Notes: generated from the sequence alone by a model not told the origin. DNA of 64,000 bases from Candidatus Kaiserbacteria bacterium CG10_big_fil_rev_8_21_14_0_10_47_16 (GCA_002773395.1 PFBI01000006.1:12049-76048), one strand, 5' to 3'. Shown: positions 885 to 58,788, counted from the first letter of the stretch. Translations and numbers: made by a program.

Positions 885-1781
885 TTATAAAAACTTTTCG
901 ATCTCCGTTAATACCTCATTTCCCTCCCCCTTCTTAAACCAGCGAATACTCTTATCGCGTTTGAGCCACGTCATCTGCCGCTTCGCAAATTTACGACTTT
1001 CGCTTTCAATCTTTTCACACATCTCTTCCTTACCTATTTTCTTTTGTAAAAATTGTGCAATGTAACGGTATTCAAGTCCGAGGGATTCCAACCGTTCGTA
1101 TGAAAGTCCGTTTTCGTGGAGATGCTCCACTTCTTCAATCATTCCCTCTTCAAGTCGGGTATAGAGACGCGTATGGATATTTTCGTGTAGTTTCTCTTTC
1201 TCTATATCAATACCAATAATAAACGCTTTGTACAGTTCTTCTTGTGTAGATTCAGGTACGCTACCGATTGCCTCTACAATCTCAAGTGCACGGATGAGTC
1301 GTACGGGATTGTCTTTATCAATGTCCGCCGCACGTCGCGGGTCCTGCTCTTCAAGAAGTGCAAAAAGTTCTTCAGTACTTTTTTCTTCCAAAGTCTTTCG
1401 AAGTTCTTGGTTTGGCGGTACTTCTGGAGTACTTACGCGTCCAAGAAGCGCATCAACATAGAAGAAACTACCGCCTGCGACAATCGGCAGCTTTCCTCGC
1501 GCAAGAATGTCTGCAATCGCAGTGCGACCGTCGCGCACAAAGTCAGTGACGTTGTATACGTCCTTCGGATCTGCAACATCAAGAAGGTGGTGCGGGACGC
1601 CGTCCATTTCTTCCTCAGTCACTTTGCCACTGCCAATATCGAGTCCTCTATATACTTGGCGAGAATCTGCAGAGATAACCTCACCGTTAAACTGCTTCGC
1701 CACTTCGATAGAAAGCGACGTCTTGCCCGAGGCAGTTGGCCCCACAATCACTACTATTTTTGGCTTGTTTTTGTCACTCAT
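885..1781 (-). CDS. miaA: tRNA dimethylallyltransferase
   Basis: P-loop GPTASGKT followed by ISADSRQVYRGLDIGSGK; 298 aa, typical MiaA layout. Confidence 0.9.
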   Translation of the reverse strand: MSDKNKPKIVVIVGPTASGKTSLSIEVAKQFNGEVISADSRQVYRGLDIGSGKVTEEEMDGVPHHLLDVADPKDVYNVTDFVRDGRTAIADILARGKLPIVAGGSFFYVDALLGRVSTPEVPPNQELRKTLEEKSTEELFALLEEQDPRRAADIDKDNPVRLIRALEIVEAIGSVPESTQEELYKAFIIGIDIEKEKLHENIHTRLYTRLEEGMIEEVEHLHENGLSYERLESLGLEYRYIAQFLQKKIGKEEMCEKIESESRKFAKRQMTWLKRDKSIRWFKKGEGNEVLTEIEKFL

Positions 1782-1875
1782 TGGAGGGACTATACCACAC
1801 TATTGCTGTTTGTACGGGTATCTGATAGTCTCCTAGCAGAAGAAGCCAAGGTGGCTTCAAAACAGGAGATTTAAG

Positions 1876-30786: not shown

Positions 30787-30916
30787 AACAATGCATTGTT
30801 AACTAGTAGAGGTGCATGGTATCAAAGATCGAGGATATAGCTACCCGAGAAATACACAGCGCCACTTAATTACCAATGATGCAACTTTTCATTTTTTCAG
30901 TATACTGACCACACTT

Positions 30917-30986
30917 GCGCGGTTAGCTCAGGGCAGAGACAAAATAGTATGGGATACTATTTTACGATTGACATTGAATATATTGT
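30917..30986 (+). pseudogene. degenerate tRNA-like remnant (acceptor/D-arm-like gcgcggtTAGCTCAGGGcagagac, a 10-bp stem hairpin, an ATTGACATTG anticodon-arm fragment) immediately upstream of tRNA-Val
   Basis: TAGCTCAG D-arm consensus plus ATTGACATTG identical to the tRNA-Val anticodon arm. No T-arm or 3' acceptor. Confidence 0.35.
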
Positions 30987-31059
30987 GAGCGATTAGCTCA
31001 GCTGGTAGAGCGCTACATTGACATTGTAGAGGTCACAGGTTCAAGTCCTGTATCGCTCA
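30987..31059 (+). tRNA. tRNA-Val (anticodon GAC)
   Basis: Manual cloverleaf: acceptor GAGCGAT/ATCGCTC, D-arm GCTCAGCTGGTAGAGC, anticodon stem CTACA/TGTAG with loop TTGACAT, T-arm ACAGGTTCAAGTCCTGT, discriminator A. Confidence 0.85.
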
Positions 31060-31139
31060 CAATATATTTAAGACAGTCACAAATTGACCTAATTTTTAAG
31101 AAGCGAAGCGACTATAAAAATGGAAATGTCCTTGTGGCG

Positions 31140-31160
31140 CAAGCCCTGTATCGCACATTA
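31140..31160 (+). repeat. imperfect direct repeat of the tRNA-Val 3' region (caagYcctgtatcgc...), about 80 bp downstream of the tRNA; att-core-like
   Basis: caagccctgtatcgcaca versus tRNA caagtcctgtatcgctcaca. Confidence 0.4.
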
Positions 31161-31163
31161 GAT

Positions 31164-31202
31164 AAAAAGAACCCCGTTTGTTTAGAACGGGGAATTTTTT
31201 AT
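31164..31202. terminator. bidirectional intrinsic terminator (aaaaagaaccccgtttgtttagaacggggaatttttt)
   Basis: 7-bp stem with A5/T6 flanks, between tRNA-Val(+) and the HTH gene(-). Confidence 0.7.
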
Positions 31203-49168: not shown

Positions 49169-51256
49169 ATGCTATCACCCCAAGTATTTCTCTCATTCTT
49201 TGTTATTCTCGCGCTTTCAAGTCTCGCGGTCTTTGTCGCACGAAAGGTTCGCCTGCCCCACACTGTATTCCTTGTTGTCGTTGGTGCGATACTTGGTTTC
49301 CTCTCATTCCTGCCCCCATTTACGTTCATTAGTCAGTTTGAATTTACGCCAGGACTCCTTTTTTACCTTCTTCTCCCAACGCTCATTTTTGAGTCTGCGT
49401 TTGCTATGCAAATCCGACGTATTCTTGCCGATATTCCAATCATCTTCCTGCTTGCGGTTGTTGGACTTCTTATATCAGCACTCGCGATCGCCGCAGGTCT
49501 CTCATTCGGTTTCGGACTCATCGGTCTTTCTGTTCCTTTCTCATTTCTTTTCCTCTTTGGCGCAATCATTTCAGCAACAGATCCAGTTGCGGTTCTCGCC
49601 CTCTTCAAAGAGTATGGCGCTCCGGAACGTCTCTCCCTCATTTTTGAAGGAGAGAGTCTTTTCAACGATGCAACGGCGGTAGCACTTTTCTTCATTGTAC
49701 TCGGTGTGATTACCGAAGGATTTCACGGTTCAAGCACAGTGAGTATTGCAGTGGTGAATTTCACATTCATGATGATTGGCGGAATTCTCTTCGGTGCACT
49801 TATTGGGAATCTCTTCTCATGGCTCGTTGGAAAAGCTCGTGAAAACGAAGTGGCGAGTATTACACTCACTATCGCTCTTGCGCATATTACGTTTATTCTC
49901 TCTGAAGTTATTTCTGAACACCTCGTATTCTTCAACACGCAGTTTGCAATCTCTTCGATCGTCGCAACTACTGTGGCTTCGCTCATCATGGGTAATTACG
50001 GACGAGCAAAGATTCACCCATCTGCGGATGAATTCGTATCGAAGCTCTGGAGCCAGCTTGCCTTCATGGCAAACTCAACGATTTTTGTCCTCATCGGACT
50101 TCTTTTTGTGCGAAGTGGTGTATTCACCAACGGAATGATTGTGCCTATTCTTGTCACGATTATTGTGGTCGCTATTGCGCGCGCACTCTCTATTTACCCT
50201 GTCGCCTTTATCTATAATCTCTTTGCAAAATCAAGTCGCGACCTACCAACTGCGTGGGTACACCTCCTTTCGTGGGGCAGTCTCCGTGGTGCACTCGCCA
50301 TTACGATGGTACTCCTTGTGCCTGCTGATCTTGAAATCCCTGGATGGACATTCAGTATTTCTCCACAAGCCTTCCTCCTTTCTCTCACCGCAGGTTGTAT
50401 ATTCGCAACACTCTTCCTTAAAGCAACGACCATTCGTCCGTTTATGCGAAAGCTTAAGCTCGACGCGCATACTGATCTTGAGGAACTTCAACTCTACGAA
50501 GCGCAGGCAATCATCCATGAACGTATTACCGAACGTCTACGGCAACACCACAAGCGCGGCTATATTGCCGACGGTGTGTTTGAAACTCTGTTGAAGGAAC
50601 ATGTCGATGCATTTACGAAAGCGTGTGCGGCGGTTACTTCATGCGGAGAGCGTAATGAAGAACGTGCACAGAGTGTGATTCGTATGTACGCCATCGGTAT
50701 TGAATTTCTTTATCTCAAAGAACTCTATCAATACAATGAAGTGAACGAGTTTGTCTACCGTCGTATTTTTGGTAAGCTCTCAGCCCAATTTGAAGCTATT
50801 GAACACGGCAATCTTTCTGCTGACTCTGTGATGCATACCGACGGAAAGGACGTCTTTGAAAAGATGGCAGCACGCATCCATGGCGCGCTCTTCCCGAAGT
50901 CAGTTGGCACTATCGCGGAAGAGAATTACCTCTACTACCGCGCGCAGTCTATTATTTCCCGAAAGGTACTCAAGGAGCTTAATCGTCATGACGACAGCGA
51001 CGCCATCAGCATCTTCTCTGAGCAAGCGTTTAGTGAAATCATCCGAATCTACGAATCGTATAAAGAACAATCAAAAGCAAAAATGCTCAAGATTGCAGAG
51101 GAACACCCTGAGACAATCGCTGCACTCTCTCAGTCGCTTGCAGTACGCGGTGTCTATAAGACAGCCTCACAGACACTCAGTGAACTCCGCAGCACACAAC
51201 TCATCACTGCGAACCTTCAGATCGCCCTCAGTGACGAACTCAAAGAAGCCGACTAA
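49169..51256 (+). CDS. CPA1-family Na+(K+)/H+ antiporter (NhaP-type) with a ~300-aa cytoplasmic C-terminal domain
   Basis: ATDPVAVLALFKEYGAPERLSLIFEGESLFNDATAV are the NhaP TM4/5 signature motifs. 12 TM. Confidence 0.8.
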   Translation: MLSPQVFLSFFVILALSSLAVFVARKVRLPHTVFLVVVGAILGFLSFLPPFTFISQFEFTPGLLFYLLLPTLIFESAFAMQIRRILADIPIIFLLAVVGLLISALAIAAGLSFGFGLIGLSVPFSFLFLFGAIISATDPVAVLALFKEYGAPERLSLIFEGESLFNDATAVALFFIVLGVITEGFHGSSTVSIAVVNFTFMMIGGILFGALIGNLFSWLVGKARENEVASITLTIALAHITFILSEVISEHLVFFNTQFAISSIVATTVASLIMGNYGRAKIHPSADEFVSKLWSQLAFMANSTIFVLIGLLFVRSGVFTNGMIVPILVTIIVVAIARALSIYPVAFIYNLFAKSSRDLPTAWVHLLSWGSLRGALAITMVLLVPADLEIPGWTFSISPQAFLLSLTAGCIFATLFLKATTIRPFMRKLKLDAHTDLEELQLYEAQAIIHERITERLRQHHKRGYIADGVFETLLKEHVDAFTKACAAVTSCGERNEERAQSVIRMYAIGIEFLYLKELYQYNEVNEFVYRRIFGKLSAQFEAIEHGNLSADSVMHTDGKDVFEKMAARIHGALFPKSVGTIAEENYLYYRAQSIISRKVLKELNRHDDSDAISIFSEQAFSEIIRIYESYKEQSKAKMLKIAEEHPETIAALSQSLAVRGVYKTASQTLSELRSTQLITANLQIALSDELKEAD

Positions 51257-51267
51257 CACAAGGAATA

Positions 51268-51303
51268 TAAAAACAGCGAGCCGTACCGGCTCGCTGTTTT
51301 TAT
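51268..51303. terminator. bidirectional intrinsic terminator (aaaaacagcgagccgtaccggctcgctgttttt)
   Basis: 11-bp stem with A5/T5 between convergent genes. Confidence 0.8.
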
Positions 51304-51304
51304 A

Positions 51305-51673
51305 TTAGTCTCGTCCGAATCGCATCATTCGTTTGATCATTGCACCGCCCCGCTTTACTAACGTCTGCTCCTTACTCTGCGCCTTCCGAATCTCGCGCTC
51401 GACCTCATTTCGCATTTGGTCAATAGATTTTTCAATCTGGTCAGTCGTTGCTTCTGCTCGATATAACTTGCCGCCAACTCGAATATTTACTTCGGCGCGG
51501 AAGATATTTCCACTGTGACTCCCTGTCATCTTCTCAAGCTCAATATCACAGGTCACGTCTGGTCGGTCGCCGATGAATTTACCCAGTTTTGCAAATTTTT
51601 GTTCAACGAGTGTCCGAAGTGTGTCGGTCACTTCGATGTTCGATCCTTGGATGTGCGTAATTGAAAATGTCAT
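51305..51673 (-). CDS. hpf: ribosome hibernation-promoting factor (RaiA/HPF, short form)
   Basis: ITHIQGSNIEVTDTLRTLVEQKFAKLGKF...GNIFRAEVNIRVGGKLYRAEATTDQIEKSIDQ. Confidence 0.85.
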   Translation of the reverse strand: MTFSITHIQGSNIEVTDTLRTLVEQKFAKLGKFIGDRPDVTCDIELEKMTGSHSGNIFRAEVNIRVGGKLYRAEATTDQIEKSIDQMRNEVEREIRKAQSKEQTLVKRGGAMIKRMMRFGRD

Positions 51674-51683
51674 AGGTACAATA

Positions 51684-51908
51684 TTATTTCTTTATAATAT
51701 CAAAAATCTTGGTTGGGGACCGATGTCCGGCAGTGATACGTACATCCCGTACCGGTACTTCGTATATTTCAGCAAGCACTGCTTGCACCCGTCGGTTTGC
51801 AAGATTCCGCTCTGCTGGCTCACGTACTGATAGGGCAAACTCAGTATCACTTACTTTTTTTACCAATTCCTTACGCGCTCCCGCAACTACTCTTACTCTA
51901 ACATACAT
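51684..51908 (-). CDS. DUF167 (YggU/UPF0235) family protein
   Basis: VRVVAGARKELV...LSVREPAERNLANRRVQAVLAEIYEVPVRDVRITAGHRSPTKIF. Confidence 0.65.
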   Translation of the reverse strand: MYVRVRVVAGARKELVKKVSDTEFALSVREPAERNLANRRVQAVLAEIYEVPVRDVRITAGHRSPTKIFDIIKK

Positions 51909-52183
51909 ACATTTGGTTCTGTCGTATCACCTTTTTGTGAAGCCATTCCAGAACCATAGTTCTTTTCAAGATACTCAGAAATAGGACCTGATTCGTACAT
52001 GAATGTACCTGTTTCAGGGTCAATCATAAAGGGAGTCTGCCCTTTCCCGCCCTTTTCAACGAGTTCGTCCATAACACCTTCATCGGCAATATTTTTCTCG
52101 TCAATCGTAAGGTTTAAGTCTTCAACTTTTTTAAGTACCATTGCGCAAAATGGGCACCCTGTCTTTACATAAAGCGTAATCAT
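51893..52183 (-). CDS. glutaredoxin-like protein (CPFC active site)
   Basis: MITLYVKTGCPFCAMVLKKVEDLNL...TPFMIDPETG. Confidence 0.75.
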   Translation of the reverse strand: MITLYVKTGCPFCAMVLKKVEDLNLTIDEKNIADEGVMDELVEKGGKGQTPFMIDPETGTFMYESGPISEYLEKNYGSGMASQKGDTTEPNVCMLE

Positions 52184-52233
52184 GAAATCAAAAATCGTTA
52201 TATCGTAATGTTGTGTAAGTATACTACACCCAC

Positions 52234-52854
52234 CTATGGCCGCTTATATCGTGCAGTAAGCGTCGCACTCTCAATCATCATACCTTTTGCTGCAATCTCC
52301 ACTTCATCGAGCGTTGGCGCTTTAATGAAGTTGAGCGTACCGGTCACCGCGTACAGTCGAAAGATGTATCGGTGTTCAGTCGGCTCTATATCTGTTGGCG
52401 GACACGGACCTGTATATTCTGCATTCCCTGCAGAATTAAGACCGGTTGTACCGAGGCGATCTTCTTCGTTAATTTCTCGTGTGCTCGGGACGATATTGTA
52501 GAGAACCCAATGATCAAACTTTTCTATTCCCCGCTGCTGTTTTATGCTCTCTGGAATATCAGGATCATCCATTACGAGAATGAGTGATTCTGTTCCTTCA
52601 GGAACTCCACTGATTAAGAGTGGCGGATTAAGATATCGTTTTCCATCACAGGTATATTCTGCGGGAATTGTCCCCCCATCAACAAACACCGGTGAAGTCA
52701 GTTTTAGCATAGTTGTTTCATCAGTAGATGAATAATCGGCTTCTTGAGGAGTCTCTCCCTCTTTTGTTGGAGCATCGGCATGTTCAAGTGCGAAAAATGC
52801 ACCGCCAATGATAACGAGAAAGAGAATACCGAGTAAACCGTATGCTCGTCGCAT
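52234..52854 (-). CDS. YbhB/YbcL-family PEBP (Raf-kinase-inhibitor-like) protein, secreted or anchored
   Basis: N-terminal TM/signal; HRYIFRLYAVTG; DPDIPE...FDHWVLYNI. Confidence 0.8.
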   Translation of the reverse strand: MRRAYGLLGILFLVIIGGAFFALEHADAPTKEGETPQEADYSSTDETTMLKLTSPVFVDGGTIPAEYTCDGKRYLNPPLLISGVPEGTESLILVMDDPDIPESIKQQRGIEKFDHWVLYNIVPSTREINEEDRLGTTGLNSAGNAEYTGPCPPTDIEPTEHRYIFRLYAVTGTLNFIKAPTLDEVEIAAKGMMIESATLTARYKRP

Positions 52855-52863
52855 AATGTATGC

Positions 52864-52891
52864 ATTATACCATATGTCTCATCTTGTCGAA
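52864..52891 (-). promoter_or_regulatory. putative sigma70-like promoter (TTCGAC-16-TATAAT) for the PEBP gene, giving a near-leaderless transcript
   Basis: -10 TATAAT sits 11 nt upstream of the ATG on the minus strand. Confidence 0.3.
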
Positions 52892-53209
52892 GAAGCCTCT
52901 TCACGGCATGTTCATGACACTTTAGTATAATGACTGCAGTACGATATGATTTCTTAAATGATTAGGTAGTGAAGCAAGTGTGTTCTGAACCATTTGTAGT
53001 AGCTACTCATACCGTTTTATTTTGTTCTTTAATGTTTTGTTGTACAACCCACTTTAGGCGGTGCCTTTGTGTGCCGCTTATTGTTATGACACTGCTTTTT
53101 AGCACGATACCCTGCCTCTTTGAGGCGGGGTATTCGTATAAATGACTGTATAAAAAAGCCGCCCTCTCGTTGAGACGAAAGTTTGGCTTTCTTCTCGCGT
53201 AGGGCGGTC

Positions 53210-53428
53210 TCATCGGTACTCCACTCGATACCAGAACCATGTAGTAAGGCGAGTCCTGTTACCAATAATTGCTTCTTGGCGCAGAATTTCTTCATGCGCC
53301 AAGCCAAGCCAGGGGCCTGAATATCGTAGACCTGATACCAAACTCTCCTGGACTAAACGGCACTCACCAGGGTCAGTGCCATTGAGGATTCGAGTAAGAC
53401 TGCTGGGTAATTCTATACCGGGAACCAT
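53210..53428 (-). CDS. small ORF (72 aa) with a perfect SD; its C-terminal 40 aa weakly resemble a degenerate tyrosine-recombinase box II (LRYS...IIGNRTRLTTWFWY)
   Basis: AAGGAG 6 nt upstream of ATG. Alignment to H.LRHT..L...G......Q.LGH...TT..Y.H with both His positions substituted. Confidence 0.3.
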   Translation of the reverse strand: MVPGIELPSSLTRILNGTDPGECRLVQESLVSGLRYSGPWLGLAHEEILRQEAIIGNRTRLTTWFWYRVEYR

Positions 53429-53542
53429 TTTTTACTCCTTTCTCACCACAATTGGTGCACTTCTTGAACCAGAGTTTGATTGGTACGCTGCGCTTTGCGC
53501 GCAGAAGACTTCCGCTTCCACGACACCTCTTGCACGTCTTCA

Positions 53543-53812
53543 TTATCGTACATTCCCTTTTTGGTTTTTTGGCGAACGTGTTTGAAGTGTCTCGAGAAAA
53601 CTCTTCAGCTCATCTGTCTCGAGAAGTGGCAAGAACCCCCGCACACTCGCAATGATGACGCAGTGAATGAGACTGCGTTGCGTATAGATCTTGTTGATTT
53701 CTTCGCAGACAACGACTCGGTGTTCTTTCGAAATCCTGTAGTCATCCATGAGCACATCAGCACAGTGCCCGTGGTCCCATTCCACCTGTGTCCCCTTTTT
53801 AAAAAGCGGCAC
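53543..53812 (-). CDS. hypothetical small protein (89 aa) with a canonical SD, inside the tRNA-Asn-adjacent islet
   Basis: AAGGAGG 5 nt upstream of the GTG start. It begins 15 bp after the tRNA-3'-end repeat copy. Confidence 0.4.
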   Translation of the reverse strand: MPLFKKGTQVEWDHGHCADVLMDDYRISKEHRVVVCEEINKIYTQRSLIHCVIIASVRGFLPLLETDELKSFLETLQTRSPKNQKGNVR

Positions 53813-53826
53813 AATAACCTCCTTCG

Positions 53827-53865
53827 GTTTGTAATGATTCCTAAGCTCCGCGGGCAGGATTCGAA
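53827..53865. repeat. 36/39 direct repeat of the tRNA-Asn 3' end plus 19 nt of its downstream flank (copy of 53971-54009)
   Basis: gtttgtaatgattcctaagctccgcgggcaggattcgaa versus ttttgtaatgatttctaggctccgcgggcaggattcgaa. The sequences diverge right after gattcgaa. Confidence 0.7.
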
Positions 53866-53950
53866 GCTTACAGCCTCAGTACACCTTGTCGCTCTTTTAT
53901 TTCCTTACGTCATAAAAGAGCTGGCAAGGTTTTCGAATCCTCACAAAACA

Positions 53951-53965
53951 GTCCACTGGACTGTC
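53951..53965 (-). terminator. putative tRNA-Asn terminator hairpin (cagtcca c tggactg, with a T-run on the minus strand)
   Basis: Perfect 7-bp palindrome followed on the minus strand by ttttgtgagg. Confidence 0.35.
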
Positions 53966-53989
53966 TTTGATTTTGTAATGATTTCTAGG

Positions 53990-54061
53990 CTCCGCGGGCA
54001 GGATTCGAACCTGCGACCAATTGATTAACAGTCAACTGCTCTACCGCTGAGCTACCGCGGA
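53990..54061 (-). tRNA. tRNA-Asn (anticodon GTT)
   Basis: Manual cloverleaf on the minus strand: acceptor TCCGCGG/CCGCGGA, D-arm GCTCAGCGGTAGAGC, anticodon stem GTTGA/TCAAT with loop CTGTTAA, T-arm GCAGGTTCGAATCCTGC, discriminator G. Confidence 0.85.
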
Positions 54062-54159
54062 GCCTAAAAATCATTGTTTCAAGGTACATCTCCTCCGTAG
54101 AAGAGTTACAGCATTGTACAGAAAAATCACAGAGTTTCAACACATCCTTCTAAAGATGG

Positions 54160-54396
54160 CTATCCTGAAAAGGCACTATTGAAGAATTGCTGGATTGCTG
54201 CTCCAATATCGATCGTCCCCGCAAGGTTAAAAGCGATAGAAGTGACGACCGCAACTAAGACCGTTGCGCCGAGCGCAGTACCAAGGCCGCGTACCAACCC
54301 TTTCAAAAATACTCTCTTCGGAGAGTTCTGAATCTTCAACTGCTCATCAACTGAGGAAAGAATCTCATAGAGCTTCTCTTCGTTCTTTTTTTCCAT
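54160..54396 (-). CDS. hypothetical small membrane protein
   Basis: The start was taken at MEKKNEEKLYEIL; C-terminal TM GTALGATVLVAVVTSIAF. Confidence 0.4.
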   Translation of the reverse strand: MEKKNEEKLYEILSSVDEQLKIQNSPKRVFLKGLVRGLGTALGATVLVAVVTSIAFNLAGTIDIGAAIQQFFNSAFSG

Positions 54397-54461
54397 GGTT
54401 CTATGATACCAGAGTGGATAGAAACGATGTACCGATACCTGTGTGGTATATAGTGGTGCAT

Positions 54462-54626
54462 ATGGAATCAAAACGATTGACTTGGCTACTCATGATTGTC
54501 GGCGGAGCTATCGGCGGATACGTGCCGATACTCTGGGGAGCGAGCTATTTCTCCTTCTCTTCAATCATCGGCAACGCGGTCGGCGCCATCTTCGGCATCT
54601 GGCTCGCGTTTCGTCTCACTCATTAA
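54462..54626 (+). CDS. small two-TM membrane protein, GlsB/YeaQ/YmgE-like
   Basis: MESKRLTWLLMIVGGAIGGYVPILWGASYFSFSSIIGNAVGAIFGIWLAFRLTH. The ORF track shows a longer frame from 54264. Confidence 0.4.
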   Translation: MESKRLTWLLMIVGGAIGGYVPILWGASYFSFSSIIGNAVGAIFGIWLAFRLTH

Positions 54627-54762
54627 GAAAGAGTTCCACGTAAACATGGTTTCGGTTTAGACAAACCCATCTAGTTATTCACCGTACCCATTGTGCTTAC
54701 GCCCAGATTTGCGAGAATAGAAGTATTAATAATATAAATTTCTAGGTCTTCTAGAAAACATC

Positions 54763-55128
54763 ATGAACACAAAAAAATTAGCACAAGTGTTTGGAGTGGT
54801 CTTTCTACTCATCGGTATTCTTGGATTCGTTCCTGGAATCACCACAACAGGTCATCTCCTTGGTATCTTTGAAGTTGATATCCTTCACAACGTTATTCAC
54901 ATCCTCACGGGTATTCTTGCACTCGTTTTTGCAGGAAGTGCGGCGAAGATGTTTTTCAAAGTATTTGGTATCGTATACCTCATCGTAACGGTTGTCGGGT
55001 TTGTTCAAGGTGATACTGTTCTCGGTCTCATCGGCGTAAACCTTGCTGACAATGTTCTTCACCTCGTTGTAGCTGCAGTTGCGCTCTACGTTGGTTTCAA
55101 GAAGGACACTATGGTGTCATCAATGTAA
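54763..55128 (+). CDS. DUF4383-family membrane protein
   Basis: FGVVFLLIGILGFVPG...LLGIFEVDILHNVIHILTGILAL. 4 TM. Confidence 0.6.
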   Translation: MNTKKLAQVFGVVFLLIGILGFVPGITTTGHLLGIFEVDILHNVIHILTGILALVFAGSAAKMFFKVFGIVYLIVTVVGFVQGDTVLGLIGVNLADNVLHLVVAAVALYVGFKKDTMVSSM

Positions 55129-55137
55129 TCATTGACC

Positions 55138-55168
55138 CTACGAACATAAAAATCCCCGCACATGCGGG
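55138..55168 (+). terminator. intrinsic terminator (aaaaatccccgcacatgcggggattttt)
   Basis: Perfect stem with A/T flanks. Confidence 0.75.
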
Positions 55169-55276
55169 GATTTTTATTTATCGCCAAAAAAACCTTCTTT
55201 CTATTAAGCAGTTATTGACTTTTTATACCCTCAGTCGCATACTGCCGCTTAGATGCACCATAAAAGGGCCTGACAC

Positions 55277-55615
55277 ATGCTTATGCTCAATGCGTTAAGT
55301 GCCATAGCGTTAATGGCCGCTCTGTCGCCAACGATTGCATCAAACGACATCGATGCATGTGAGGGAAGAATATTTAACTTCCCCGTATTCATAGATATCG
55401 ATTTCCACAATGCAACGACTGCCGGTGACTGCGACATTACGCTAAACTACCGAATGCCGCCAATGAGCGACGGGGCCACCATTTTTTCCGTCAGCGTCGT
55501 CATAGAAAACGGCAAGGAGGTCACTACGGGAGTACAAATCACACAGACGACACTCGTCTGTAAAGATGGGAAGATGGTTCGCAAGGAGGGTTCTACTGAT
55601 GCCGTTTCTCGTTAA
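55277..55615 (+). CDS. small secreted 4-Cys protein of unknown function
   Basis: Signal peptide MLMLNALSAIALMAALSPTIASN. TTGACT-type promoter upstream. Confidence 0.5.
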   Translation: MLMLNALSAIALMAALSPTIASNDIDACEGRIFNFPVFIDIDFHNATTAGDCDITLNYRMPPMSDGATIFSVSVVIENGKEVTTGVQITQTTLVCKDGKMVRKEGSTDAVSR

Positions 55616-55880
55616 GTTGACTGTCGTAAAGATTTCCGCACTGTTGCTGCTCATTTATTTGGCGACGACACACGCGGAAATCCTACGCACCATCCAACGC
55701 TGGGTCGGTGCCGCCGTCGACTGGGTGGAAAGGATCTTTGAGGTCAACGCCCAGTTCATGATTTTCTTCGATCTTTTCGGAGGCAAATCAATCCTGCTCT
55801 TCATTGTTCTCTGCTTCGTCATAACGATATCCGCGATATTGATTAAACATCTTACACGTGAGACAAAGAAAAAAGCGTGA
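55599..55880 (+). CDS. hypothetical membrane protein (N- and C-terminal TM)
   Basis: MPFLVKLTVVKISALLLLIYLATTHA...ILLFIVLCFVITISAILI. It overlaps the upstream gene by 17 nt. Confidence 0.4.
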   Translation: MPFLVKLTVVKISALLLLIYLATTHAEILRTIQRWVGAAVDWVERIFEVNAQFMIFFDLFGGKSILLFIVLCFVITISAILIKHLTRETKKKA

Positions 55881-55897
55881 ACATCCACACCCTGAAG

Positions 55898-55932
55898 GAA
55901 GCCCGGTCGCAGCATGCGGCGCGGGCTTTTTC
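55898..55932 (+). terminator. intrinsic terminator (compound GC hairpin + TTTTTCTTTT)
   Basis: agcccg...cgggct stem enclosing cgcagcatgcggcg. Confidence 0.6.
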
Positions 55933-55984
55933 TTTTACACAACACCGCCTATTTACCTATCGACGTACGATACAATAGGTCTGT

Positions 55985-57049
55985 ATGATTTTAAAAAGTA
56001 TGCGCATTCTCATTCTGAGTTTTATTGCATTTCTCCCTTCCTCTTTCGCATCTGCGCATGAAGTGTACGTGCTTCCACAAGACGTTATCGATACCGCAAT
56101 TCATACCCCCGGAATGCCGCTCATGCAGATACTCCTCGAGAACCTCAATCAGTTTTTACTCTGGGGATTTATGGCAATACTGTTGGTCTTCATTATCTTC
56201 TTTACTTCAATTTCACACACCCTCGAAGAACGGCTCGACCCTTTCCTTGCAAAGCTTCCTCCCTTTGCCCCCGTGATCAGCCGTATCACGATTGGCCTCG
56301 CCTTTCTCGCGGCAGCCTACTACGGGGCTCTCTTTGGGCCAGAATTGCCTCTAGGTGCATCTTTTGGGGCATATACGCCCATTATCACTGCTTTATTGAT
56401 TGTCCTCGGTTTAATGATTATTGTGGGGTTCTATACCCGCGTTGCTGCCATTATTGCCGGTCTTATTTTTCTGTGGCAAGTATCCATCTCTGGTGAATAT
56501 ATGTTCACCTATGCCAACTACGCTGGTGAGCTTATCCTCCTCATCATTCTCGGCGCGCATAAATTTGCCTATCACCACAAAGGACACGACGTGCGCCGTG
56601 CGCCCCGAGCCCTCCTTCGTTTGAAGGAAATCCTTACGCCTTATACCTTCCTCATTCTCCGCGTTGCCTTTGGTGCTTCCCTACTCTACGCTTCAATATA
56701 TGCAAAAATAATTCACAACGAACTTGCGCTCGCAGTTGCTGCAACACCGCTCGCAGGACATGCGACCAGCCTCGCTTCTGTCTTTGGGTTCTCACCAGAG
56801 TTTCTTGTTCTCGGTGCAGCGATTGTGGAGATTGTCATCGGTACATTCTTTATTCTCGGTATCGAAATTCGGTTTACCTCACTCTTCCTCCTCTTCTGGC
56901 TCTCACTTTCACTCTGGTACTTCGGCGAAGTGGTGTGGCCACACATTGTTCTCATCGGTATTCCTATTGCATTTATTTTTTATGGATACGACAAATACTC
57001 GCTCGAAGGATTCTTTTTCAAACGAAACGGGCGTGACCCTGTGCTCTAG
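55985..57049 (+). CDS. integral membrane protein with a cleavable signal peptide (~8 TM); unknown family
   Basis: MILKSMRILILSFIAFLPSSFASAHEV; multiple hydrophobic spans; HHKGHDVRR loop. Confidence 0.55.
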   Translation: MILKSMRILILSFIAFLPSSFASAHEVYVLPQDVIDTAIHTPGMPLMQILLENLNQFLLWGFMAILLVFIIFFTSISHTLEERLDPFLAKLPPFAPVISRITIGLAFLAAAYYGALFGPELPLGASFGAYTPIITALLIVLGLMIIVGFYTRVAAIIAGLIFLWQVSISGEYMFTYANYAGELILLIILGAHKFAYHHKGHDVRRAPRALLRLKEILTPYTFLILRVAFGASLLYASIYAKIIHNELALAVAATPLAGHATSLASVFGFSPEFLVLGAAIVEIVIGTFFILGIEIRFTSLFLLFWLSLSLWYFGEVVWPHIVLIGIPIAFIFYGYDKYSLEGFFFKRNGRDPVL

Positions 57050-57099
57050 GAGTGCATAACCGGGAGTCCACTCAAAGATGATGGAATACAATAAGACCC

Positions 57100-57303
57100 A
57101 TGGAATCAGATATACTCAAAAAACTATCCGAACAAGACGAGAAGCTTGATGCTATTTGGCGTTCTGCAGAAAAAACGCGCAAGATGTTCCTCTTTACTAT
57201 GTGGGGCACGATTATTGCCTTTGTACTCCCGCTTCTCGCACTCGCGTTCGTTATCCCAAGCTTTATTAATTCGTACCTCTCAAGTTACCAAGGATTATTG
57301 TAA
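57100..57303 (+). CDS. small membrane protein (67 aa); tentative
   Basis: Amphipathic N-terminus then TM MFLFTMWGTIIAFVLPLLALAFVIP. Confidence 0.3.
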   Translation: MESDILKKLSEQDEKLDAIWRSAEKTRKMFLFTMWGTIIAFVLPLLALAFVIPSFINSYLSSYQGLL

Positions 57304-57337
57304 TCATTGTTCGCACGGTATCAGTGGGCGAGAGACA

Positions 57338-57366
57338 TTGACTTTTAAGGGTTTTTATATTACTAT
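57338..57366 (+). promoter_or_regulatory. sigma70-like promoter TTGACT-17-TACTAT, followed by a ~90-nt structured leader of the DEAD-box helicase gene
   Basis: Exact 17-nt spacer. The leader contains the hairpin ccccaccttaagatactcgtgtgggg. Confidence 0.45.
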
Positions 57367-57459
57367 CTCCCCACCTTAAGATACTCGTGTGGGGCTCTTC
57401 AGGAGCGAAAAGCTATTTTCGGATTATTACCTGCACCCCTAAGAACATACATTCCAGTC

Positions 57460-58788
57460 ATGGATCATACAACAAGCCGACCTAGTCGGAACTCTTCTTC
57501 TCGTAGTGGCAGTCGCCCAAGCTACGGAGGAGCAAACAAACGATCATCTTTCAGTGACCGTCGCGGTCGCGGTGGAAACGGAGGAGGATCATCATTTAGT
57601 AGCAATCGTTCACCACGTGGTGGTTCATCACGAAGTGGTGGTGGCAGTGGCTCATCACGTGGTCGCGGTGGCCGCATGCAAAAGTCTTTTGACGTATCAC
57701 AATACATCAACAAGAACCCTGTTATTCAGGAAACTGCAGAGGTATACGTACCTGAACATAAATTTACTGAATTCGGCCTCGATAAGAAGCTCGCATTTAC
57801 GGTAACGTCTTCAGGACTTGTGTCTCCGACACCAATTCAAGATCAGATTATTCCGCACATCCTTGAAGGACGTGACGTCATTGGTCTTGCAAACACAGGT
57901 ACCGGAAAGACCGCAGCCTTCCTCATTCCACTTATTGATAAGACCCTGCGCGAATACAATCGTCAGACACTGATTCTTGCGCCAACTCGAGAACTTGCAA
58001 TTCAGATTCAAGAAGAGCTTCGAAAGCTCAGTGGACAGTCTAAAATCTACTCAACCATCTGTGTTGGTGGAACGAGTATTCGACCACAGATCCAAGGTCT
58101 CCGACGAAAGAATCATTTTATCATCGGAACTCCCGGACGTGTGCTCGATCTTATTAATCAGGGATACCTCAAGCCGCAGCACATCCGTACCGTCGTTCTC
58201 GACGAAGCGGATCGTATGCTCGACATGGGATTCATCCATGATATGCGTAAGATTCTGCAAGACATTCCAAAAGATAAAGAAACACTCTTTTTCTCAGCGA
58301 CTATGTCTGCCGACATCGAACGACTCGTCAGCGACTTCCTTCGAAACCCTATTACCGTATCGGTAAAGAAGAAGGATATTACTGGCAGTATTGAACAAGA
58401 CGTTGTCCGTCACGGTAATCATGATAAGTTCCAAACATTGGTAACACTTCTCAAGGATACTGAGACATTCAAACGAGTGATTATCTTCGGTGCTATGAAG
58501 CACAGTGTTGAAAAACTCGGACAAGCACTCAATGCTGCAGGTATTACCGCAGAATCAATTCACGGTAATAAGTCACACCCACAGCGACAGCGCGCACTGA
58601 AAAACTTTAAAAGTGGGCAGTCACGCGTACTCGTTGCAACAGACGTCGCCGCTCGCGGTATCCACGTTGACAACGTGACTCACGTGATCAACTACGATCT
58701 CCCGAACTGTTACGAAGATTACGTACACCGTATTGGCCGTACCGGCCGCGGTGAGAAGCTTGGAAAAGCACTTACGTTCGTAGCGTAA
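57460..58788 (+). CDS. DEAD-box ATP-dependent RNA helicase with an N-terminal ~75-aa RGG/Ser-Gly-rich disordered region
   Basis: Q-motif TPIQDQIIP, AQTGTGKT-like ANTGTGKTAAF, DEAD (VLDEADRMLDMGF), SAT, HRIGRTGRG. N-terminus SRSGSRPSYGGANKRSSFSDRRGRGGNGGGSS.... Confidence 0.9.
   Translation: MDHTTSRPSRNSSSRSGSRPSYGGANKRSSFSDRRGRGGNGGGSSFSSNRSPRGGSSRSGGGSGSSRGRGGRMQKSFDVSQYINKNPVIQETAEVYVPEHKFTEFGLDKKLAFTVTSSGLVSPTPIQDQIIPHILEGRDVIGLANTGTGKTAAFLIPLIDKTLREYNRQTLILAPTRELAIQIQEELRKLSGQSKIYSTICVGGTSIRPQIQGLRRKNHFIIGTPGRVLDLINQGYLKPQHIRTVVLDEADRMLDMGFIHDMRKILQDIPKDKETLFFSATMSADIERLVSDFLRNPITVSVKKKDITGSIEQDVVRHGNHDKFQTLVTLLKDTETFKRVIIFGAMKHSVEKLGQALNAAGITAESIHGNKSHPQRQRALKNFKSGQSRVLVATDVAARGIHVDNVTHVINYDLPNCYEDYVHRIGRTGRGEKLGKALTFVA

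Follow-up and report, generated by a model that had tools for sequence, protein, structure and literature searches.

The tRNA-Asn Locus and Its Direct Repeat

We analyzed a 64-kb stretch of DNA from Candidatus Kaiserbacteria (Parcubacteria), here called the window; all window coordinates refer to the whole stretch. Our subject is its tRNA-Asn(GTT) gene and a structured, tRNA-Asn-linked element of ~135 nt, named TLE, that lies just downstream. On the minus strand the tRNA gene is followed by TLE, by three small open reading frames (ORFs), o89, o56 and o72, and by a terminator-like hairpin, beyond which lies the PEBP gene. The 3' part of the tRNA gene (copy A) is repeated at the far end of TLE (copy B). 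The features are collected in Table 1.

Table 1. Features of the tRNA-Asn locus in the window.
Feature	Position	Strand	Evidence or remark
tRNA-Asn(GTT), intact, intron-less	53988-54061	-	ARAGORN; Rfam RF00005, 75.4 bits
Repeat copy A: T-loop to tRNA 3' end plus 19-nt trailer	53972-54012	-	repeat search
Repeat copy B: 3' strands of the TLE closing helices (TTCGAATCCTG + CCCGCGGAGC) plus 19-nt trailer	53828-53868	-	
5' leader segment complementary to both trailers, lengthens the acceptor stem by ~13 bp	54062-54075	-	inverted repeats I1 (95%) and I2 (86%)
TLE, ~135-nt structured tRNA-Asn-linked element	53844-53979	-	covariance model R1
TLE hairpin H1 (AAAGACAGTCC-AGT-GGACTGTTTT)	53945-53968	-	helix 2; 5/5 pairs covary
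5' strand of the TLE long-range helix, GAGGATTCGAA; its complement is the T-loop/T-stem part of copy B	53932-53942	-	
TLE stem 2 (ACCTTG/CAAGGT) around hairpin H3 (GCTCTTTTAT...ATAAAAGAGC)	53883-53930	-	compensatory CC/GG to GG/CC and the reverse; H3 covaries
TLE hairpin H4, 5 bp and conserved TGTAA loop	53862-53878	-	5/5 pairs covary; 98.7% of cells paired
tRNA-Asn promoter TTGAAA-16-TACAAT	54113-54140	-	scan 10/12; 28 nt identical to the L031 tRNA-Asn promoter
PEBP promoter, extended -10 box TGGTATAAT	52865-52873	-	half of a putative ancestral divergent promoter; marks one breakpoint of the proposed inversion
o89, 89-aa ORF, GTG start, AAGGAGG Shine-Dalgarno site at 53818-53825	53543-53812	-	small conserved family; function not assigned
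o56, 56-aa zinc-ribbon-like ORF (CxxC...CxxC)	53373-53543	-	ATG one base past the o89 TAA stop
o72, 72-aa orphan ORF, AAAGGAG Shine-Dalgarno site	53210-53428	-	cluster of 1
Intrinsic terminator-like hairpin closing the small-ORF operon	53159-53178	-	terminator scan

The two copies are 41 nt long and identical at 38 positions (93%); over the slightly different spans compared in an earlier note on this DNA (53827-53865 and 53971-54009) we obtained the same count as that note, 36/39. Copy B covers the T-loop, the 3' strands of the T-stem and the acceptor stem, and 19 nt of trailer. The alignment bears out the claim of that note that identity ends within the T-loop (TTCGAA), the form of an att-type direct repeat. 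A 21-nt exact core, GCTCCGCGGGCAGGATTCGAA, occurs twice in the 64 kb and was never met in 100 dinucleotide shuffles, even with 3 mismatches allowed. Near PEBP we found no third copy, only a chance-level 9-mer, and no degenerate TLE, the model scoring at most 5 bits there even with its filters off. A metagenome scan for the exact repeat-plus-trailer pattern gave 0 matches in a collection that evidently lacks this genome. A match to the 21-nt core in viral contigs was discarded as an unrelated high-GC tRNA-Asn.

The spacing between the copies is short (144 nt), and tRNA-Val in the window also has short partial end copies nearby, as might be expected of a simple local duplication or slippage product, with no function and no link to recombination. 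However, the sequences beyond the 41 nt are unrelated to each other, hence the repeat is not a tandem duplication, and elements homologous to the interval, and covarying with it, are present in at least 12 other lineages, as described below. We therefore regard this explanation as effectively refuted, with only a minimal probability left to it.

TLE Is a Conserved Module with a Covarying Fold

Copy B forms the 3' end of a structured module that is conserved and derives from tRNA-Asn, a conclusion that is well supported and that we hold with high confidence. The 103 nt between the copies and copy B itself form one module common to many lineages, and are not the random debris of a decayed element. 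A covariance model, R1, built from seven relatives and the window, matches the window TLE with 120.2 bits (E = 8e-33 in an 806-kb search, 2e-35 locally).

On the tRNA strand, TLE begins with the strand GCTCCGCGGG, the complement of the tRNA 3' end, followed by H1, CAGGATTCGAA and stem 2 around H3; its 3' part consists of a GTAC-type linker, H4 with its TGTAA loop, and GAATCCTG-CCCGCGGAGC. The fold comprises six helices (four hairpins and two long-range helices) and shows strong covariation. From eight sequences RNAalifold predicted 37 pairs, 21 of them with compensatory changes. The covariation statistics were computed on 15 distinct copies: both sides have changed in 25 of the 37 pairs, 89.8% of the cells are paired, as against 67.7% in shuffles, and the covariation score is 0.561, compared with 0.161 in shuffles (0 of 500 reached the observed score) and at most 0.117 with slid partners. 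In 11 of 12 lineages the strand GCTCCGCGGG pairs with the TLE 3' end, and in L030 the change on one side is compensated on the other (CGCTGG/CCAGCG). Non-Watson-Crick cells, 17 GU/UG and 14 AC/CA, show no strand bias and did not distinguish between the RNA and DNA readings.

The window TLE is without the 5' acceptor-like strand found in relatives, and also without the terminator that elsewhere precedes the element. Instead, the tRNA leader is complementary to both trailers, and the minimum free energy fold of a 271-nt transcript pairs leader positions 54062-54075 with copy B (z = -8.8).

Rfam families, RtT and tmRNA included, gave no TLE match at E <= 1 in window positions 50000-58000 or in seven related loci. 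Identification of TLE as a tmRNA, a group I intron remnant or a self-cleaving ribozyme was considered and found no Rfam support. Two TLE motifs searched against viral contigs returned chance matches only, none confirmed by R1.

TLE in Related Lineages

The window was compared with related loci and contigs, given below by L-numbers, among which 40 tRNA-Asn loci were assessable. In 11 of these 40, a TLE starts 33-43 nt past the tRNA. Sequence homologous to the 103 nt plus copy B is present in L022, L025, L029, L069, L078, L084, L086/L136, L089/L092 and L122. Outside the seed, R1 matched in L086/L136 (130 and 101 bits), L026 (115 bits), L030 (83 bits), L025 (72 and 70 bits), a second copy in L089/L092 (70 bits) and L158 (68 bits). 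At the 3' end of TLE stands the lineage's own T-stem/acceptor sequence: CCTGGTCGCGGAGC in L084, CCTACCCGCGGAGC in L069 and L122, and CCTGCCGCCGGAGC in L026. The L029 copy shows one mismatch (CTTGCCGCCGGAGC), and the L022 copy is partly decayed, ending in GCCGCAAGA.

Copies may also be multiple. They are in tandem in L086; in L089 they bracket a DUF218 gene and a 120-aa gene, and in L025 a 2.4-kb cassette that includes a patatin-like gene, with an NYN-domain gene just past the distal copy. In L026 a three-gene island (SEC-C motif, DUF4238, membrane protein) and a TLE body are bracketed by repeats of the tRNA 3' end with ~34 nt of trailer, the same form as the window repeat with its 3' end and 19-nt trailer. 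TLE lies between two terminators in L089. In L078 the scan flagged a hairpin on the tRNA side only, on the opposite strand, the hairpin after TLE coming from reading the sequence only; the TLE-flanking hairpins of the other lineages were likewise read from the sequences. L089 and L086 are 96.9% identical over the tRNA-3'/TLE stretch and 82% identical in the adjacent PEBP gene.

A relative of TLE, which we call type 2, has the consensus GTGAGAAAG-hairpin-CGCAAGA-stem/hairpin-TGAACAG-hairpin(TGTAA), its core being H1, stem 2/H3 and H4. It matches at L022 2087-2155, L029 5678-5743, L100 1272-1381, L080 10-120, L027 4615-4675, L086 3792-3911 and L158 14894-14952. In L022, L029 and L100 the type 2 core lies upstream of tRNA-Asn, between duplicated fragments of the leader and the 5' part of the tRNA. 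One type 2 copy sits in a housekeeping spacer, between deformylase and an unrelated gene.

Might TLE be an RNA? It could be a functional tRNA-like RNA, co-transcribed with tRNA-Asn and cut out by tRNA-processing enzymes, in kind like RtT of E. coli, a possibility that we consider real but doubtful; processing of this sort is suggested because the TLE ends copy the tRNA-Asn acceptor stem. The product might, rather tentatively, be a small RNA, or a "punctuation" or stability element for the downstream accessory mRNA, and the direct repeat might, with no greater likelihood, simply be the shared 3' strand of the acceptor and T-stems. Such an RNA would be expected to covary strongly, as TLE does in its four hairpins and its two long-range helices, to keep certain loop and linker nucleotides, and to pair GCTCCGCGGG with the 3' end, with compensation as in L030; it also explains better why the fold has several branches, why loops are conserved and why the closing stem is acceptor-like. 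TLE is, moreover, always on the tRNA strand, usually has its own terminator-like hairpin after it, and is conserved more than the neighboring protein gene. In the window TLE lies within the predicted tRNA-o89 transcript, where the leader can substitute for the missing 5' strand through a 21-bp duplex (the z = -8.8 fold above), and RtT supplies a precedent (PMC4986893). Yet no promoter for TLE was predicted in L089 or L078, a T-run terminator-like hairpin stands right before TLE in nearly all lineages, and there is no excess of G:U over A:C pairs (17 versus 14). Tandem, mosaic, truncated and cassette-bracketing copies would be unusual for a housekeeping RNA gene, the repeats that include trailer (window and L026) look recombinational, and both the missing 5' strand of the window copy and the negative Rfam search speak against an RNA.

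Serine Recombinases at tRNA-Asn

In this clade tRNA-Asn is a genuine hot spot of integration. In 11 of the 40 loci, other than the 11 with TLE, a gene for a large serine recombinase (LSR) of 500-580 aa converges on the tRNA-Asn 3' end, mostly overlapping it. Pfam assigns these proteins Resolvase and Recombinase domains (and Zn_ribbon_recom), while their similarity to XisF/CcrB-like families of NCBIfam stays below the curated cut-offs. Their C-termini (...W/LLRGxDSNxRP..) are encoded by the complement of the tRNA acceptor/T-arm. LSR ORFs running into tRNA-Asn on the opposite strand are found at L009 5997-7628, L036 3986-5692, L042 4135-5883, L048 4352-5890 and L083 1746-3476. In the window, a plus-strand ORF (53480-54028) crosses both repeat copies in one frame and reads LRGQDS in them.

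Across genera the locus occurs in four states: tRNA alone, tRNA with TLE, tRNA with an LSR island, and tRNA with island and TLE. The last is seen in L158, one of the 11 LSR loci: its tRNA is followed by an LSR island of 7.5 kb, then by a displaced and degenerate tRNA 3' fragment, and after this by a native-type terminator and TLE. In one unrelated Parcubacteria species the strains differ right after the tRNA, where some have an LSR island, others a restriction-modification pair or something else. At L158 11400-11530 and 4240-4340 there are repeated palindromic motifs, GGTTCGAACC, that resemble a T-loop. They fall within the 3' coding part of the LSR gene and close to the distal end of the island, and might be sites of recombinase binding or of crossover. 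A search of the gene-poor 1.1 kb of the window for LSR pseudogene remnants found none.

The Small ORFs

The o89 family has 21 representatives among 1.84e9 proteins, and o89 received no PDB, Pfam, PHROG, PADLOC or NCBIfam assignment. Its homologues P0002 and P0042 lie in contexts without a tRNA or a recombinase gene, among housekeeping genes in L019 and on a short contig, L005. For o56 there were only sub-threshold matches of the DnaJ CXXCXGXG type. The earlier note had read an integrase box-II-like tail into the 72-aa ORF; o72 has no family match in Pfam, PHROG, PADLOC or NCBIfam, and no similarity to the phage-integrase catalytic domain of tyrosine integrases was found. The note had proposed a comparison with integrase and excisionase profiles; in these four collections none of the small ORFs resembles integrases, excisionases, phage or defence families. 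Of the two small ORFs with Shine-Dalgarno (SD) sites that it had described, both exist and AAGGAGG does precede o89, but the o72 site is AAAGGAG, and a third ORF, o56, had been overlooked. SD sites are indeed unusual for this genome, an SD-like site being present at 4 of the 37 long ORFs of the window.

No promoter or terminator was predicted between the tRNA, TLE and o89 in the window, so that the small ORFs would be transcribed from the tRNA promoter; they are best seen as accessory cargo of a variable region. Their place inside a long tRNA-led transcript would explain why they need SD sites although most starts in this genome seem to be leaderless. In keeping with such starts, PEBP and several other ORFs have a -10-like box immediately before them. 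The -10 box of PEBP, TGGTATAAT, is just 8 nt ahead of the ATG, and the PEBP mRNA appears to be near-leaderless, which fits the scarcity of SD sites.

It may be asked whether the whole of 52855-53990, small ORFs included, is the remnant of a decayed phage or island, with copies A and B (or A and a lost distal copy) as att sites and o72 as an integrase relic. We consider this improbable. The interval is lineage-specific, its SD sites are atypical for the genome and the hot spot is real in relatives, but the copies bracket just 103 nt, with the ORFs outside; neither a third copy nor a degenerate TLE was found near PEBP with the model filters off, the ORFs lack similarity to integrase, excisionase, phage or defence proteins, and LSR proteins match the window only at the tRNA overlap. 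The o89 homologues are found among housekeeping genes or on a short contig without a tRNA or recombinase, GC content and skew show no anomaly in the region, and the strong SD sites are also explained by their position inside a long tRNA-led transcript. The view expressed in the earlier note, of a decayed integrated element or a still-active hot spot, thus survives in part: the hot spot stands, on the evidence of the 11/40 LSR loci and the L158 island, whereas integrase or excisionase ORFs, a recombinase in the window, polymorphism and a compositional anomaly did not materialize.

Promoters and a Probable Inversion

A PEBP-glutaredoxin-YggU-HPF block is kept in dozens of Parcubacteria. In relatives tRNA-Asn lies just upstream of PEBP, mostly divergent and within ~75-400 nt, and none of these loci encodes o89, o56, o72 or DUF5665. 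The ~1.1 kb without a housekeeping gene, to which attention had been drawn, is therefore confirmed as lineage-specific. In L031, L078 and L089 the tRNA and PEBP promoters abut, TTTCAA being directly followed by TGGTATAAT and, after 7/8 nt, by ATG. In the window both promoter halves are intact and 1.27 kb apart. We infer that the 1.27-kb promoter-tRNA-repeat-ORF segment has been inverted at the divergent promoter relative to the relatives, which would account for the extra 1.1 kb between tRNA and PEBP. The gene-poor 1.1 kb would then be the variable region whose usual place is 3' of the tRNA and which has come to lie against PEBP.

Contigs of the Same Species

The window sequence is identical in a 396-kb JGI contig, whose proteins are named Candidatus Kaiserbacteria bacterium CG10_big_fil_rev. 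One ENA contig, L003/L007 (ERZ27293414 k141_1345973), was considered as an occupied/empty variant. In it window positions 52423-54061 (99.94% identical) are fused at the tRNA 5' end, with the junction at 54056-54061, to a wholly different flank, which belongs to another organism, of the Parcubacteria CG2_30_48_51 type, whose own tRNA-Asn differs in T-stem and acceptor. The join sits within 43 nt common to both tRNA-Asn genes and gives a G:G mismatch in the acceptor stem. We judged this contig to be a probable chimeric assembly and no evidence of mobility. A Logan contig, L002, also ends within the tRNA, at window position 54017.

Other Features of tRNA Loci

In 17 of 50 related loci tRNA-Asn is split between anticodon positions 35 and 36 by an insert of 200-615 nt, and was missed by ARAGORN. 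These loci are L086 (1174-1772), L136, L021, L023, L025, L026, L028, L040, L063, L067, L098, L106-108, L112, L132 and L145. The inserts of six loci were compared with the group I intron family (Rfam RF00028) and all matched, at 54-89 bits; the L086 intron encodes an HNH endonuclease. Group I introns in tRNAs of the Candidate Phyla Radiation (CPR) are mentioned in PMC8172020. The window tRNA-Asn is continuous, with no intron at 35/36 by ARAGORN or Rfam.

In three loci, L045 826-1365 (Kaiserbacteria S40-18), L036 5760-5980 and L096 (tRNA at 1728-1800, minus strand, with ~170 nt on each side), a complete tRNA-Asn is nested among ordered fragments of an older copy. Fragments of positions 1-20 and ~20-36/43 lie upstream, those of ~37-65 and 62-73 downstream, and the leader and trailer of the complete gene are complementary. 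The trailer of the distal fragment in L045, TTAGTTTTCAAAAT, is the native trailer of L037.

In the tRNA-Val gene of the window (30987-31060, plus strand; region 30886-31178), leader and trailer form an inverted repeat by which the acceptor stem is lengthened (30974-30993 versus 31052-31071, 95%). Partial copies of its ends lie on either side, that of the 5' end 70 nt upstream (30916-31 versus 30986-31001, 88%) and that of the 3' end 98 nt downstream (31140-64 versus 31042-66, 80%). Both window tRNAs thus show leader/trailer complementarity and partial end copies; R1 gives no match at tRNA-Val. Between the Na+/H+ exchanger and HPF genes, at 51264-51306, lies a 43-nt near-perfect palindrome (self inverted match 93%; spurious mir-485 match), which is probably a bidirectional terminator.

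TLE as a Possible Integrated Unit

The reading we favor, at a probability of about 0.5, is that TLE is a cargo-less attL-body-attR integrated unit, resembling a cis-mobilizable element (CIME), at a T-loop attachment site. Copies A and B are the direct repeats around the TLE body, and the crossover would lie in the T-loop TTCGAA of tRNA-Asn. Each integration would bring a new tRNA 3' end and trailer, shifting the older 3' end and any older units downstream, and recombination between the repeats would hold the TLE 3' end identical to the host tRNA. In relatives the same site is taken by LSR islands. In this genome the unit appears to have become fixed, with no recombinase gene nearby and the three small ORFs as possible accessory cargo of the same variable region, and the whole promoter-tRNA-TLE-ORF segment would have been inverted later. 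We infer that TLE arose and spreads by site-specific recombination, that LSRs are the responsible enzymes, and that the crossover falls within the T-loop. Acting at the DNA level, such a unit would explain why the repeats of two lineages contain trailer, why there are arrays, cassettes and flanking terminators, why wobble pairs show no bias, and why LSR islands are found at the site.

Several observations weigh against integration. There is no recombinase gene in the 64-kb window, where tblastn with five LSRs matches only the tRNA overlap. The comparison with related contigs that the earlier note had recommended yielded no occupied/empty polymorphism, all eight same-species contigs having the identical arrangement, and among the loci compared there was no strain-level pair differing by the TLE unit alone. 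In no LSR island was TLE found inside the island end, and in L158 it lies past the displaced 3' fragment, so that the link between LSRs and TLE is positional only. At 103-144 bp, the unit would be a very small one to be excised as a circle. A fold with several branches, conservation of unpaired nucleotides (those of the TGTAA loop and the GTAC-type linker) and compensatory changes across deep lineages are more typical of a functional RNA than of att arms. The type 2 core upstream of the tRNA in L022, L029 and L100 is unexplained by one recombinase with a single T-loop site. Finally, since no promoter or terminator was predicted between them, the window TLE is probably co-transcribed with the tRNA and the o89 operon. 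The DNA-level and RNA readings are not mutually exclusive.

More broadly, TLE may represent an undescribed class of tRNA-derived structured elements specific to Parcubacteria, either an LSR-moved mobile mini-element that copies the host tRNA-Asn 3' end or a tRNA-like RNA that organizes a tRNA-anchored cassette array; we put this forward tentatively, at somewhat under even odds. If it is true, the type 2 core, the stand-alone copy at L158 14894-14952, the group I introns and the LSR islands would make tRNA-Asn a multi-layered recombination platform.

The CPR, or Patescibacteria, have tiny genomes, and how they gain and lose accessory genes is little understood. Here a single tRNA gene appears to serve as a platform across many lineages, for LSR islands, for group I introns with homing endonucleases, and for a folded non-coding module at the edge of a variable region. 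If mobile, TLE would be a structured, target-mimicking integrative unit of unusually small size; if an RNA, it would be a new tRNA-like family without an Rfam entry. Either way, the covariance model provides a sequence-and-structure marker for the variable region in these genomes, and a partial tRNA copy beside a tRNA is not automatically a prophage scar.

Comparison with Known Systems

The locus may be compared with the attL/attR repeats of genomic islands and prophages integrated at tRNA genes. Here too the repeat is the 3' part of the tRNA beside an intact gene (41 nt, 38/41; tRNA 75 bits), identity ends in the T-loop, the functional tRNA is preserved, recombinase islands use the same tRNA in relatives, and older material is displaced downstream. 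A T-loop sublocation class of tRNA attachment sites was reportedly set out by Williams in 2002. The differences are that the TLE segment of 103 nt is non-coding, without an integrase, and itself a conserved structured family, the ORFs beyond it having no recombinase similarity; that the recombinases at the site in relatives are LSRs and not tyrosine integrases; and that the window repeat includes 19 nt of trailer.

CIMEs retain attL and attR while integration and transfer genes are absent (PMC6323972). The window likewise has att-type repeats with no integration or transfer genes between them, and TLE units can stand in tandem with other units at one tRNA site. On the other hand, TLE is far smaller than described CIMEs, its body has a covariation-supported fold, and its mobility is putative. 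No parent island carrying the TLE body as an arm was found, LSR islands using the same tRNA in 11 relatives and the L158 TLE lying outside the island.

Integron attC sites also keep structure over sequence, and TLE copies, like them, bracket short cassettes at one locus, with no wobble strand bias. TLE differs in being tRNA-derived and tRNA-anchored, in its multi-branch fold as opposed to a single imperfect hairpin, and in its arrays of 1-3 copies, and no gene for an IntI-type tyrosine recombinase was seen in the locus gene tables or Pfam matches. With the tRNA-like domain of tmRNA, TLE shares an acceptor-like closing stem and a GGAUUCGA motif near the 5' side, but it has no G3:U70 pair, T-arm hairpin or tag reading frame, is multi-copy and, at 135 nt, is too short; ARAGORN and Rfam detected no tmRNA here.

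The 178-bp tyrT repeats contain the tRNA 3' end. RtT is an RNA released from E. coli tRNA operons, tyrT and others (Bosl and Kersten 1991, as cited in PMC4986893). Like it, TLE does not code for protein and comes right after a tRNA gene, whose 3' end it repeats; tandem copies are possible, and transcription together with the tRNA is predicted. The two differ in phylum and in fold, TLE has no Rfam match at E <= 1, and its processing and release are hypothetical. In its workings TLE is most like tRNA att repeats and CIMEs, and in appearance it is most like RtT and other tRNA-linked repeats; proof of mobility or of a stable RNA could make it a new class.

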